From Dehalococcoidia bacterium (GTDB taxonomy: Bacteria; Chloroflexota; Dehalococcoidia; UBA2979), in assembly GCA_963667465.2 (NCBI GenBank), contig CAXXDN010000002.1:1120001-1184000 (forward strand): a DNA stretch of 64,000 nucleotides, in the 5' to 3' direction. Below, piece after piece: positions 42,244 through 48,527 of the stretch; the first letter of the stretch is position 1, and every line of letters begins with the position of its first letter. The position numbers and the translations under genes were made by a program. Under the pieces are notes generated by a model that saw only the letters and a list, made by a program, of their open reading frames with translations, ran no database searches and had not been told where the DNA came from.

Positions 42244-43164
42244 TCACGAGGGCGCTCCATCCTCGCCCTCGCGCGTTACGAGGCGCAGCCCGCCCCGCAG
42301 GGCGACGTACACGCCGACCAGCAGCAGCGCGGCGCCGAGGGCTTCGAGCAGCGTCGGCCGCTCGTCGAGGAGCGTCGCGCCGATCGCGGTCGCCCCAACC
42401 GGCTCGCCGAGCGCGGCCACCGCGACGACGGCGGCGGGCAACGAGCCGAGGGCCCAGGTGAAGGCCCCGTGCCCGATGAGTTGCGGCAGCAGCGCGAGCA
42501 GCACGATCAGGATGTAGGCCTCGGCGCCCCAGCCGAGCAGCGATTCGCCGCTCGCCGCCAGCGCGACCAGCAGCACGATCGCACCGATCGCGTTGGCCAG
42601 CGCGAAGTAGCTGACGTTCGAGAGCCTCGCCCGGATCCGCCTGCCCGCGATGAGGTAGATCGAGGCGCAGACAGCGCCCAGCGCCGCGAAGGCATCCCCG
42701 CGCAGCGAGACGCCGTCGCCCAGGTCGGCGCCCGCCAGCACCAGCGCCCCGCCCGCGGCGATGGCGATGCCGATCAGCAGCGGGCGCGTCGGCTGCTCAC
42801 CGAGCGCGACCCAGGCGCCGAGCCCGACGATCAGCGGCTGCGTCGCGATGATCGTGGTGGCCGCGGCGATCGAGGTGTCCTGCACCGAGGCGGTCCAGAA
42901 CCCGACGTAGCCAGCGAGAGCCAGTCCCGCGAGCGCCAGCAGCGCCGCGTCGCGGCTGCCGAGCAGCCTCAGCTCTTCGCGGCGTCGCAGGGCGGAGCTG
43001 GCGAGCAGCGGGAGCGCCGCCAGCGCGAGCCGCAACGAGGCGATCACCAGCGGCGGGGCGTCCGTCAGGCGGACCAGCGGCGCGGCCCAGGCGAACCCCA
43101 CCACCCCCACGAGCAGCACGATCCATTCGCGCCCCGCCACGCCCTCGCGCCAGGCTCTGTTCAT
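42244..43164 (-). CDS. DMT/EamA-family transporter, copy 2 (tandem duplicate)
   Basis: Near-colinear, highly similar paralogue of 41306-42217. Confidence 0.9.
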   Translation of the reverse strand: MNRAWREGVAGREWIVLLVGVVGFAWAAPLVRLTDAPPLVIASLRLALAALPLLASSALRRREELRLLGSRDAALLALAGLALAGYVGFWTASVQDTSIAAATTIIATQPLIVGLGAWVALGEQPTRPLLIGIAIAAGGALVLAGADLGDGVSLRGDAFAALGAVCASIYLIAGRRIRARLSNVSYFALANAIGAIVLLVALAASGESLLGWGAEAYILIVLLALLPQLIGHGAFTWALGSLPAAVVAVAALGEPVGATAIGATLLDERPTLLEALGAALLLVGVYVALRGGLRLVTREGEDGAPS

Positions 43165-43214
43165 GCGGCGACGCTAGCAGGTGCGGCCCCTACTGGCCGG
43201 AGGATCGCGGAGTG

Positions 43215-44111
43215 CTAGCTCTCGCCCCCGTGCTCGGCGAGAACGCTCTCGATCATGTCGCGCAACTCGTTGCTCCGTGGGGCCAGGAAGAGGGTGTCCA
43301 CGACCTCGTTCGAGTTGGGCTCGAGGGTCGCGAAGTTGGGGTGGTAGCTGAAGCCAAGACCCATCCCAAACGCCTTCTCCTCAGGGATGTCCCAGTCGAG
43401 GATTACGAAGTTCACCTGGTCCTGGAATTCGAGTCGCAGCCTGTTCACGACAGGCCGTGCGCGGTTGCAGTTCGGTCACCAGATCGCATCGAGGAAGACG
43501 AAGGTCGGCTTCCCGTTCACCGGGAGGTACGCGCCCGTCGAGTCCACGTGCGTGCTCGGCGGCTCGTAGTCGGCCGCGACCAGCTGGGCTGGCCCGGTTG
43601 GGAAGTCGTAGCTCGGCTCAGGCGTCGCGGTCGGCGTGGGCTCAGGCGTCGCGGTCGGCGTCGGCTCAGGCGTCGCGGTCGGTGTCGGCTCAGGCGTCGC
43701 GGTCGGTGTTGGCTCTGGCGTCGCGGTCGGTGTTGGCTCTGGCGTCGCGGTCGGTGTTGGCTCTGGCGTCGCGGTCGGCGTGGGTTCGGGCGTCGCGGTC
43801 GGTGTTGGCTCTGGCGTCGCGGTCGGTGTTGGCTCTGGCGTCGCGGTCGGCGTGGGTTCGGGCGTCGCGGTCGGCGTGGGTTCGGGCGTCGCGGTCGGCG
43901 TGGGTTCGGGCGTCGCGGTCGGTGTTGGCTCAGGCGTCGCGGCCGGCGTCGCCTCCGCTATCGCCGTCGCGACTACCGCCGAGGGCGTCGCCGTCGCGGC
44001 GGGGGTGGTCTCGGCCTCGTCGCCGCCGGAGCAGGCCGCCGCAAGCGCCGCGCAGGCGAGGGCCAGCGGCGCGAGGTGCAGAACTCGCAGGTGACGCTGG
44101 ATGCGCTGCAT
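43215..44111 (-). CDS. Thioredoxin-fold lipoprotein A, probable selenoprotein (W-U-P-N-C), with Pro/Thr repeat stalk
   Basis: GAGGTG RBS; lipobox LAAAC; ORFs 43476-44132 and 43215-43448 in frame across TGA 43476-43478: [41 protein letters not shown]. Confidence 0.85.
43439..43455 (-). promoter_or_regulatory. SECIS-like hairpin A
   Basis: GCCTGT-CGTGA-ACAGGC at +21..+37 after the UGA. Confidence 0.75.
43615..43950 (-). repeat. 24-bp tandem repeat, 13 full units plus one variant (TPEPTPTA)
   Basis: Units ggctcaggcgtcgcggtcggcgtg with synonymous variants, period 24. Confidence 0.95.
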
Positions 44112-44118
44112 CAGCACC

Positions 44119-44562
44119 TCAGGCTGGCTCAATCAGCTGGATCGCACCCGCCTCGACGAGCTGCACGCACTCGCAGGGCGTCATGCCGGGCAACGACTCC
44201 TCGCCGGGCTGCATCCGCTCGAGGCTGTCGGCGATCGTCGTGATCTGCTCGCGCGAGCGTTCCAGTTCCTCGATGCGGTCGTCGAGCTGCCCGACGGCCT
44301 CGGCGAGCGTCCGGCTGAGCACCGTGCGAATGTCCCCGCAGGTGCCATCGTGCGCAAGGCCGAGCACCGTGCCCATCTCTTTGAGCGACAGGCCGAGGCC
44401 GCGCAGCCCGACGGCGAGCCGCAGCGTCTCAACATGCTGCTCGCTGTAGTCGCGGTAGCCGTTCGCCCGTCGCGGGGGCGAGGGCAGCACGCCCTGCCGC
44501 TCGTAGAAGCGGATCGTGTCGGCGCTGAGGCCGCTGGCGGTGGCGGCTTGCTGGATATTCAT
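44119..44562 (-). CDS. MerR-family transcriptional regulator, metal-sensing type
   Basis: [32 protein letters not shown]; Cys at start of dimerisation helix (GTCGD) and C-terminal CEC. Confidence 0.9.
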
Positions 44563-44629
44563 CCGGTTCGCCCGCTCCCGTTCTCGTCGCCGTTAAGGAT
44601 ACGCCGCCACGAAGCGCCCGTGGCGCCGG

Positions 44630-45163
44630 CTACCCACCCTGGCCGGCGATCGCGTCATCGAGAAGCTCGCGCAGCGCCACCTCGCGCAGCGGGCCGAAGG
44701 TCGTCTTCAGCACATCGCCCGCGTCGGGTGCGACCATCGCGAAGGAGGGGTGTCGGCCGACGCCCAGCTCGCGGGCCAGGTCGCGCTCCGCCCCGATGTC
44801 GAAGTCGAGGATCACGAAGTTGATCCGGTCCTGGTATTCCTCCCGAAGCCCGTGCACGACGGGCCGCGCGATCGCGCAGGTCGGTCACCAGATCGCATCG
44901 ACGAAGACGAGCGTCGGTTTCCCGTTCGAGGGCACATAGGCGCCGGTGGAGTCGACCTGCTCTGACGAGTATTGGAAGTCGGCAGGCACGAGCACTGCCG
45001 GGCCCGTGGGGAAGGCCCCGTCCGCTGCGGCTGTGGCGGCGGACGACCCCGCGGATGGCGCGGGCGCGCCCTCGTCACCGCCGGAGCAAGCGGCGATCAG
45101 CGCCAGACCGGCGAGGAGCGCGAACACGATGCTGAGAGTTCGCGGGATGCTCATGCGCTCCAT
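44630..45163 (-). CDS. Thioredoxin-fold lipoprotein B, probable selenoprotein (W-U-P-T-C)
   Basis: GGAGGT RBS; lipobox LIAAC; in frame across TGA 44885-44887: GKPTLVFVDAIW-U-PTCAIARPVVHGL..RINFVILDFD..RHPSF. Confidence 0.85.
44848..44864 (-). promoter_or_regulatory. SECIS-like hairpin B
   Basis: GCCCGT-CGTGC-ACGGGC at +21..+37 after the UGA. Confidence 0.75.
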
Positions 45164-45242
45164 ACCTCCCTCGCCCGGGGTGCTGGCTGCTGATGATCTC
45201 CGGGATCAAGGATATGACGCGACGCGGTTGTGCGGAGCGCGG

Positions 45243-45836
45243 TTATCCCTCGTAGCGTGCGATCAGGGCGTCGAGCATGCCGCGCAGCTTGGGCTCACGC
45301 TGCGCCCCGAAGACCCGCGCGATCACCTCGGCCGAGTCGGGCGCGATCAGCAGGTAGGCGGGTGTGCCCGAGTAGCCGAGCGCGCGCGCCAGCCTGTCGT
45401 CCTCGCGGTCGTCGACATCCAGCACGACGAAGTTCACCTGGTCCTGGTATTCCGTTCGGAGCCCATGCACGATGGGCCGCGCGATCTCGCAGAACTGTCA
45501 CCAGATCGCATCGACGAACACCAGCGTCGGCTTCCCGTTCGAGGGTATGTAGGCCCCCGTCGAGGCGACGCGGTCCTCGGGCGGCTCGAAGTCGGCGGCG
45601 ACCAGCACGGGAGGGCCGGTCGGGAAGGCGTAGCTCTCCGGCGTCGGCGTGGGCGAGGGCGGCGCCGTCGCCTCGGGAACGACCGTCGTGGCGGGAGTCG
45701 CCGTCGTGACGGCCGGCTGCGGCGTAGCCATGGACGCGGGTGCATCCCCACCCGTGCAGGCGGCGGCGAGCGCCAGCGACGCGAGGGCCGGGATCAGCAA
45801 GCGCCGTACGCGGGATTGCAGCATCGACTCGATCAT
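45243..45836 (-). CDS. Thioredoxin-fold lipoprotein C, probable selenoprotein (W-U-Q-F-C); start uncertain
   Basis: Lipobox LAAAC; in frame across TGA 45498-45500: GKPTLVFVDAIW-U-QFCEIARPIVHGL..QVNFVVLDVD..GTPAY. Confidence 0.85.
45461..45477 (-). promoter_or_regulatory. SECIS-like hairpin C
   Basis: GCCCAT-CGTGC-ATGGGC at +21..+37 after the UGA. Confidence 0.75.
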
Positions 45837-45861
45837 ACTCCCCGGGGTGAGGCCCGACACG

Positions 45862-46500
45862 CTACTCGTACGTGCCTCCGGCCGTGTCGGCGTCCGCTAC
45901 GCCCACCTCGAGCAGGTGGCCGACGACAGTGCCGAGGGCGGTCGTGCGCACGATCCCGTCGCGGTCGATGAAGAACGTCGCCGGCAGCGCTTCCACGCCG
46001 TAGCGCCGCGCCACCTCGCCGCCCGCGGTGTCGAAGAGTATCGGGAAGGTCAGCCCGAACTCGTCGACGAAGGCCTCGGCCGCCGCCAGCGTGTCCTCCG
46101 GCAGCAGATTCACGGCGAGGATCACGAGGTCGTCGGGACCGCCTGGGCCGCGCTCCTCCCACAGTTCCTGAAAGTCCGGCAGCTCGCGGCGGCAGGGCGC
46201 GCACCAGCTCGCCCAGAAGTTCAGCACCACGGTCTTGCCTCGAAAGTCGGAGAGCCGCAGCGCGCCGCCGCCCAGCGCGTTCAGCAGGAAGTCGGGCGCC
46301 GGCCGGTCGACATCCACGAGCGCATCGTCCAGCAGCCCGATCGTGGCCCGCCGGGGCGTCGGGGTCGCCGTCGCGACGGCGGTCGCGGCCTCGGTTGCAG
46401 TTGCGGCAGGCTCGGGGCCGCCATCCCCGCAGGCGGCCGCGATCAGGGCCGCGCAGGCCAACGCCAGCAGACGGGCGTACGTCGAACGGCCTGACGCCAT
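45862..46500 (-). CDS. TlpA/ResA-like thiol-disulfide oxidoreductase, lipoprotein
   Basis: Lipobox IAAAC; [42 protein letters not shown]. Confidence 0.92.
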
Positions 46501-46524: not shown

Positions 46525-47121
46525 CTAGCCTCCGCCGCCGGCGTCCGCCTTCGCTACCCCCGTGGGCAGCAGGTTGCCGAAGACCGGGCCGTAGTTTACC
46601 GAGCGCACCACGCCCTCGCGGTCGATGAAGAACGTCGCCGGCAGCCCGCGCACACGGTAGCGGTCCGCCACCGCGCCGTCCGCGGTGTCGAACAGCACGG
46701 GGAAGGTGAACCCGTTGCCCTCGATGAACTCGCGGGCGTCGGTCATCGTGTCCTGCACGAGGAAGTCGAGCGCGATCATCACGAGGTCGTCCGAGCCGTC
46801 CTCGCCGCGCTCGTCCCAGAGCTCTTGGAACTCAGGCATCTCCTCGCGGCAGGGGGGGCACCAGCTCGCCCAGAAGTTGAGCACCACCGTCTTGCCCCGG
46901 AAGTCGGCGAGCATGACGGTCTCGCCCTCGAGGTTCGTCAGCGCGAAGTTCGGCGCTGGCTCGTCGATGGCCACCGTGAGGTCGTCGAGCAGGCCGATCT
47001 CGACCATCACTCCCTCGCTCGTCATGCCCTCCTCGACGCCCGGGTCGATGAACTCGCGTTGCACGAACAGCGCGGCGATCACCGCCACGATCAGGAAGGC
47101 GAGCCTTCTGTTCTCCTGCAT
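46525..47121 (-). CDS. TlpA/ResA-like thiol-disulfide oxidoreductase, membrane-anchored
   Basis: N-terminal TM; [42 protein letters not shown]. Confidence 0.92.
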
Positions 47122-47168
47122 TACCGCACCCCTTCCTGATGACGCCCGCAGCACGGGCGCAGCCCCCG

Positions 47169-48527
<1,359 letters not shown>

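Follow-up and report, generated by a model that had tools for sequence, protein, structure and literature searches.

How can three neighbouring genes of a Dehalococcoidia bacterium, each interrupted by a TGA, encode full-length proteins? The window analysed here (the whole stretch of 64,000 nucleotides, nt, of contig CAXXDN010000002.1) carries on its minus strand three paralogous genes, A, B and C, each of which becomes a single open frame once one TGA is read as selenocysteine (Sec, U). Directly 3' of each of these UGA codons lies a short hairpin. Based on our results, we propose that the hairpins are bacterial selenocysteine insertion sequences (SECIS), which would be bound by SelB and would direct the insertion of Sec, and we give this reading a probability of roughly 0.9. 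The first-pass annotation of this DNA had already suggested that a SECIS-type hairpin is under selection at the RNA level, and our analysis supports this through covariation, codon choice and the loss of the hairpin in cysteine (Cys) forms of the gene. The genes, their Sec codons and the hairpins are placed as follows:

43215-44132, minus strand: paralogue A, a single open frame of 305 amino acids when the TGA is read as U
43476-43478, minus strand: Sec codon UGA of paralogue A (U219), aligned with the first Cys of CxxC in Cys homologues
43438-43456, minus strand: hairpin A, G GCCUGU CGUGA ACAGGC U, with an extra C-G pair (43437/43457) that extends it to 8 bp
44630-45163, minus strand: paralogue B, a single open frame with TGA as U; motif W-U-P-T-C
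44885-44887, minus strand: Sec codon UGA of paralogue B (U93)
44847-44865, minus strand: hairpin B, G GCCCGU CGUGC ACGGGC U
45243-45860, minus strand: paralogue C, a single open frame with TGA as U; motif W-U-Q-F-C
45498-45500, minus strand: Sec codon UGA of paralogue C (U121)
45460-45478, minus strand: hairpin C, G GCCCAU CGUGC AUGGGC U

All three paralogues have an N-terminal lipoprotein signal and a C-terminal thioredoxin-fold domain with W-U-x-x-C, the motif of paralogue A being W-U-P-N-C. Counting from the base after the UGA, in each of them a G·U pair (+20/+38) stands at the base of a perfect stem of 6 bp (+21..+26 with +32..+37), which is capped by a 5-nt loop CGUG(A/C). A hairpin with this stem, a CGTG(A/C) loop and a flanking G-U pair had been described at +21..+37 by the first-pass annotation, and we found all three copies where it had placed them. 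Its view that the differences between the copies are compensatory also held, as the Pro codon CCT of copy A pairs with the Arg codon AGG, and the Ile codon ATC of copy C with the His codon CAT. Both synonymous changes do run against the codon bias of the genome, in whose 1480 long open reading frames (ORFs) CCT makes up 4.1% of the Pro codons and CAT 9.9% of the His codons. Importantly, the hairpin doubles as the codons for R-P-V-V-(H/N)-(G/R)-L.

The wider comparison began from a six-frame search (E up to 1e-5) of 99 genomes of the same family-level group. The gene was matched in 19 of the group's 21 genera, a count that includes weak generic thioredoxin matches; by our reading of the search table, TGA or Cys forms proper occur in 16 genera. 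The genes of this group almost always carry one in-frame TGA, and 86 distinct TGA-containing genes were extracted together with 2 TGC-containing ones. A sample of another 400 genomes from the phylum contributed 4 TGA forms as well as 3 Cys-form genes, belonging to two other families, and a pattern scan of all species-representative genomes that required W-C returned nine Cys-form loci, four of them already in the set and all nine in records titled Chloroflexota or Dehalococcoidia. The total set holds 90 Sec forms and 10 distinct Cys-form genes, and the family was found in Chloroflexota only among the genomes searched. In the alignment, the UGA takes the place of the first CxxC cysteine, W-U-x-x-C standing against W-C-x-x-C in the 10 Cys forms. 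An alignment of 86 sequences (A1) is gapless from -6 to +63, and its invariant positions (86/86) are limited to the UGA, T16 and G17 in the Cys codon, A56, and G37 and U38 in the loop.

At the family offset, all seven pairs are present in 71 of the 90 TGA forms and six in 17, while one form has five and one has four (the count was made on 89 forms, 70 of them with 7/7, and L092 was added by inspection). The hairpin is therefore not lost in other TGA-containing homologues, 88/90 of which keep at least 6/7 pairs. The two weakest forms, with five and four pairs, re-fold one register over and then have a GUU triloop, and L092, a distant relative from another family with 38% protein identity, has the same GCCCGU-CGUGC-ACGGGC hairpin. 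Across 81 distinct rows, 84% of the cells are paired, a share that falls to 22-47% if the 3' arm is displaced by 1-3 columns (the slid controls). Cells in which both sides have changed number 35, against at most 16 in the slid controls and 5.9 +/- 2.1 in shuffles, where 0/500 reach 35, a control that overstates significance because the homologues are related. We then counted events as the minimum number of times that the main pair and a standard pair altered on both sides must have replaced one another, on a protein tree from which the seven hairpin-encoded residues had been masked. The minimum was 7 switches at columns 33-43, 3 at 34-42, 2 at 31-45, 1 at 30-46 and 1 at 35-41, at least 14 in total; the tree was built quickly, and some of its branches are weak (support is 7 at one ancestor node). 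An A at column 43 comes with a U at column 33 in 11/11 cases and an A at column 34 with a U at column 42 in 10/10, and these two pairs show zero C·A or A·C mismatches. A lower stem joining columns 26-28 with 48-50 was also considered and is not supported, columns 28-48 being unpaired in 79/81 rows and 27-49 in 30/81.

The same requirement for pairing can be read in the choice of codons. We compared the codons of the 90 Sec forms with usage in the long ORFs of the window's genome, a baseline drawn from this genome alone, the genomes of the homologues varying in G+C. For Pro, the Sec forms use CCC 63 times, CCT 13 times, CCA once and CCG in 0/77, and CCG accounts for 59% of the Pro codons in the genome. 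At the Gly position they use GGG in 64/75, GGT in 6, GGA in 5 and GGC in 0/75, compared with genome values of 70% for GGC and 18.5% for GGG. For Arg they use CGG in 70/88, compared with 20% in the genome. The favoured Pro, Gly and Arg codons supply exactly those bases that the pairing needs. In the first five Cys forms tabulated, Pro is CCG in four, and the Gly position is occupied by Asp, Glu or Gln.

The Cys forms provide a natural control. All 10 have 1-3/7 pairs at the hairpin offset, where our estimate for random bases is about 2.6, and the hairpin is thus not equally conserved in Cys-encoding homologues. Pairing is low also in those Cys forms that have kept R-P-V-V (L105 and one copy in L106). 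On the tree, the two Cys forms of the window's family-level group are a pair (support 93) nested in an otherwise all-Sec clade of 43 (support 84), and the remaining Cys forms have as sister group the Sec forms from their own family, which is not that of the window; by this arrangement, the hairpin has disappeared along with the UGA at least twice. SelB scores above its cut-off in 57/61 genomes with a TGA form (counted by hand), and the two same-family Cys-form genomes (62 and 76% complete) have no SelB hit; these counts are descriptive, related genomes not being independent.

The genome itself (two contigs, 2.97 Mb) encodes the machinery that such a hairpin would need: SelB (299 bits against a cut-off of 242), SelA (517 bits), SelD (358 bits, its own gene being interrupted by one TGA) and tRNA-Sec (77 bits, anticodon TCA). 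TGA is at the same time an ordinary stop that ends 638/1480 long ORFs, and a genome-wide reassignment of TGA is therefore excluded.

In our model, during translation of each lipoprotein mRNA the 7-bp stem 3' of the UGA would present an apical G-U, in a loop 26 nt from the UGA. The complex of SelB, GTP and Sec-tRNA(Sec) would bind this G-U, and translation, in place of terminating at the UGA, would go on with a selenocysteine inserted as the first residue of the U-x-x-C redox motif. Because the hairpin is also the coding sequence of the peptide given above, RNA and protein would constrain each other, and changes in the stem would survive only with a change of the partner base, often through a rare synonymous codon.

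Several of our observations weigh against this reading. The minimum-energy fold of all three 72-nt stretches contains the hairpin, the 23-nt hairpins reach -12.2 (A), -11.2 (B) and -9.8 (C) kcal/mol when folded alone, and for hairpin A 1/200 shuffles folds equally well; the z-scores of the 72-nt folds are 0.07 (A), -0.52 (B) and 0.52 (C), none of them significant. Because these folds are indistinguishable from shuffles, fold stability alone is no evidence, and the signal that rises above chance is comparative. Hairpins with 6 bp and a CGTG(A/C) loop occur 137 times in this genome, which has 70.5% G+C. When the bacterial SECIS model used by bSECISearch (PMC13188914) was applied as implemented here, 83/90 Sec forms passed, with the passing loop at 26 nt in 73/83; 7/90 failed on their minimum-energy fold, and 3/10 Cys forms passed via unrelated hairpins. 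The generic model is permissive in this G+C-rich DNA and a poor discriminator, and the case therefore rests on position-specific covariation and not on the fit to a model. Four genomes with a TGA form (completeness 91, 78, 86 and 73%) have no SelB hit. To the same side belong the limits stated above for the shuffle control, the quick tree and the single-genome codon baseline.

Among the other explanations, the one that survives best, although we consider it very improbable, is that the hairpin is a functional RNA with another role, such as slowing the ribosome for export or lipidation or stabilising the mRNA, and that Sec is inserted by means of a different element. The proteins are predicted to be exported lipoproteins, which would suit such a role, and the binding of SelB is itself deduced from sequence. 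Nevertheless, the structure accompanies UGA codons only and is lost in the Cys forms, whose genes likewise encode lipoproteins. Furthermore, the 26-nt spacing and the invariant G-U of the loop are traits of a SECIS, and within the 63 nt after the UGA that were examined no alternative conserved structure was found.

Slightly less probable still is the idea that the hairpin has no function as RNA and is the by-product of a conserved R-P-V-V-H-G-L peptide written in G+C-rich codons, the recoding signal, if there is one, lying elsewhere. That G+C-rich coding DNA folds readily, as the z-scores and the many similar hairpins in the genome illustrate, speaks for it, as does the good conservation of the peptide among Sec forms. 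It leaves unexplained why synonymous sites are fixed on the pairing base against the preference of the genome (the absence of CCG and GGC given above) and why Cys forms can have R-P-V-V without the hairpin. Members with the different peptide R-P-G-V-A-G-L (L062) still have a perfect 7-bp stem, now with a GUC triloop, and the independent double changes that preserve pairs, at least 14 of them, largely refute this explanation by covariation. The weakest proposal, that the TGAs are real stops, the genes being split or in decay, or that readthrough occurs by a route that does not involve selenocysteine, can draw on TGA being a common stop in this genome and on standard ORF calling, which cuts each paralogue in two, but it is hardly credible given a frame that is open and conserved around the single TGA in 86 homologues from 61 genomes, a TGA that sits on the catalytic Cys position, the full Sec machinery and TGA forms that track SelB.

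With the hairpins read as SECIS elements, we could ask whether, as the first-pass annotation had suggested, they define a lineage-specific consensus usable to find further selenoproteins. This part of the annotation was not borne out: the general bacterial model fits the hairpins, and their sequence is specific to the gene family. A genome-wide screen for in-frame TGAs that are flanked on either side by coding signal (at least 35 coding-like codons each side) gave 69 candidates; the screen misses genes with Sec near an end, and SelD was missed in this way. With Pfam and NCBIfam checks, nine other selenoprotein candidates were recognized in the genome, and in eight of them a candidate hairpin ends in a G(U/G)N triloop:

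G000 C2:1517823: FdhA candidate, GUC triloop
C2:315221, 496571 and 912254: three UGSC candidates, GUG triloop in UGSC-1 and UGSC-3, and GUG in UGSC-2 by reading the sequence against the computed fold
C1:712385: rhodanese-CBS candidate, GGC triloop
C1:262420 and 876477: two AhpC/TSA candidates, GGC triloop in one and GGU in the other
C1:810932: CC/Se-like ORF, a weak candidate
C1 near 106777: SelD candidate, GUG triloop, 32 nt from the UGA

The GGC triloop is taken from the TGA screen, a separate computed fold being different for the AhpC/TSA gene. These candidate hairpins have 6-8 bp stems with sequences unlike that of the family hairpin and lie 16-32 nt after the UGA. The family spacing of 26 nt is on the long side, most other genes of the genome having 16-25 nt, and SelD 32 nt. 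The family hairpin and the other candidates have no more in common than their general architecture and a G in the loop with U or G after it; the C-GUG-C/A loop of the family can be viewed as a GUG triloop resting on a C·C or C·A that is not paired. As a general selenoprotein finder, the family hairpin had to be rejected. Among the 137 genome hits of the descriptor (6 bp with a CGTG(A/C) loop), a TGA stands at the family offset in 3, all of them the paralogues, and a covariance model of the 29-nt hairpin (R1), with which the best 150 of 5322 first-look candidates were scored, likewise recovered only paralogues A (40.2 bits), B (42.8 bits) and C (43.8 bits), the next best hit having 18.9 bits (E 0.7). 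R1 also gave six weak hits, none of which coincides with a different selenoprotein gene or comes with a TGA at the offset typical of the family. The sequence, offset and loop of the hairpin are specific to the gene family and not to the lineage, because they are written into the codons of the peptide. The family model thus serves to find more members of the family, not other selenoproteins.

The proteins themselves vary around a common design. Their signal peptides end in LAACSGG (A), IAACSGG (B) and LAAACTGG (C), a L/I-A-A-C-(S/T)-G-G pattern that we take to be lipobox-like. The thioredoxin-fold domains are 52-58% identical, A having 52% identity to B and C. Against Pfam Thioredoxin (PF00085, cut-off 23.5), paralogue B scores 31.5 bits, paralogue C 28.4 bits and paralogue A 20 bits, under the cut-off; paralogue C also matches Thioredoxin_2 (PF13098) with 30.3 bits against a cut-off of 27. 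An NCBIfam scan of the three proteins gave no selenoprotein-specific model, only general thioredoxin models far below their cut-offs, and a search of the genome for more copies found none beyond the three paralogues. The true start of paralogue A is likely an ATG 21 nt inside the ORF at 43215-44132. This paralogue has a long Thr/Pro-rich repeat linker before its thioredoxin-fold domain, encoded by a tandem repeat and confined, among the three, to copy A, where it joins the lipoprotein signal to the domain. An Rfam scan of positions 43000-46000 (E up to 10) placed no family over the hairpins and returned two chance-level matches, Twister-sister and sX4. Around the Sec genes lie the following:

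43615-43949: 24-nt tandem repeat, 14 copies with 92% match, encoding the T-P-T-A-T-P-E-P linker of paralogue A
44119-44562, minus strand: MerR-family regulator gene between paralogues B and A (Pfam MerR_1 64.1, MerR 55 and MerR-DNA-bind 35.8 bits)
45862-46500 and 46525-47154, minus strand: two upstream genes for Cys-type AhpC/TSA-redoxin (TlpA/ResA-like) proteins
47169-48527, minus strand: gene for a DUF3179 protein

Two EamA transporter genes follow downstream on the same strand. The company of the Sec genes, with a MerR regulator, Cys-type redoxins and DUF3179, suggests a regulated extracytoplasmic thiol-redox module.

Relatives in other genomes show how far the family has diverged. Several copy-A-like members (among L039, L054, L065, L079, L019 and L050) have replaced the Trp before U, giving P-G-U, Q-T-U, V-L-U or E-T-U, and have kept the hairpin; judged from these sequences, the Trp of the active-site motif appears less constrained than the RNA structure in copy-A-like relatives. 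Four or five tandem copies within about 6 kb are present in some of the genomes G076-G080 (loci L047, L048, L054, L055 and L066), and the size of the array varies within a genus. Two relatives of copy A, L038 (in G070, on the minus strand, with its TGA at locus position 806) and L077 (in G063, at position 184), have the motif U-P-H-U, with a second in-frame TGA three codons on and the same hairpin kept. In them 17 nt separate the second UGA from the loop, a distance that the bacterial model (16-37 nt) still allows, and one hairpin might serve both UGAs in these two genes.

Taken together, these data allow a wider reading that we offer tentatively, at somewhat less than even odds. The genes would belong to an uncurated family of exported U-x-x-C lipoprotein selenoproteins, restricted to Chloroflexota among the genomes searched and mostly to one family-level group, with tandem arrays of up to four or five copies and a SECIS form of its own (a C-GUG-C/A pentaloop 26 nt from the UGA). 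Two residues in the helix that follows the active site would be imposed by the RNA: one is Pro, the other Gly or Arg, at a position that is Asp, Glu or Gln in the Cys forms. A single hairpin would serve two UGAs 9 nt apart in the U-x-x-U members of two related genomes. Whatever the fate of this wider reading, recognition of the SECIS elements restores three full-length extracytoplasmic selenoproteins that standard ORF calling had split. In addition, the 86 fixed-offset homologues with their matched Cys controls provide a natural data set of unusual clarity on SECIS covariation within coding sequence, in which an RNA requirement is seen to shape the choice of codons and residues, and which can be used as a benchmark, a teaching case and a family-specific search model. 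The known picture of Sec insertion is unchanged by it, the mechanism being the ordinary bacterial one of textbooks.

How do these hairpins and proteins compare with known systems? Dehalococcoidia are named among the selenoprotein-rich bacteria by BSepDB, whose main text does not include the window family and whose supplementary tables may still list it (PMC13326102). The main text of the deep-Sep paper (PMC12013277) contains none of the terms "thioredoxin", "Chloroflex", "lipoprotein" or "UxxC", and its supplements, too, may list the family. The bacterial SECIS model calls for a loop of 3-9 nt, an upper stem that is 4-16 bp long, a gap of 16-37 nt that separates the loop from the UGA, a G as first or second base of the loop, mostly followed by G or U, and an energy of -7.5 kcal/mol or lower (PMC13188914). 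Like the elements described by this model, the window hairpins are in the coding region directly 3' of an in-frame UGA, with a 5-nt loop C-G-U-G-(A/C) that has G at position 2 and then U, a 7-bp stem (8 bp in copy A), 26 nt from the UGA to the loop and energies of -9.8 to -12.2 kcal/mol. They differ from its common loop pattern N1-G-[G/U]-N-N2, in which N1 and N2 are paired, whereas here C·C or C·A occupies these positions and no pair can form. Some few members of the family shift to a true GUC, GUU or GUG triloop.

The SECIS of Escherichia coli fdhF is a hairpin directly 3' of the UGA whose apical-loop G-U is recognised by SelB. Position and apical G-U are shared with the window hairpins, while sequence, stem length and spacing are different, and no bulged U is evident in the hairpins of the window.

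For the proteins, catalogues of thioredoxin-fold UxxC selenoproteins with hairpins of this sort go back to the Sargasso Sea and Global Ocean Sampling (GOS) analyses (PMC1088965, PMC2398784), and Trx-like 1, 2 and 3 are listed in Table 2 of the latter. Compared by description and not by sequence, the window family resembles them in its thioredoxin fold, Sec at the first Cys of UxxC, the existence of Cys homologues and a SECIS-like hairpin after the UGA, and differs from them in being a lipoprotein with a distinctive F-P-T-G-P...S-T-G-A-Y N-terminal extension. In conclusion, we regard the hairpins as very probable new members of an already known kind of element, the bacterial SECIS, and the predicted proteins as members of an already known kind, the Trx-fold UxxC selenoprotein.

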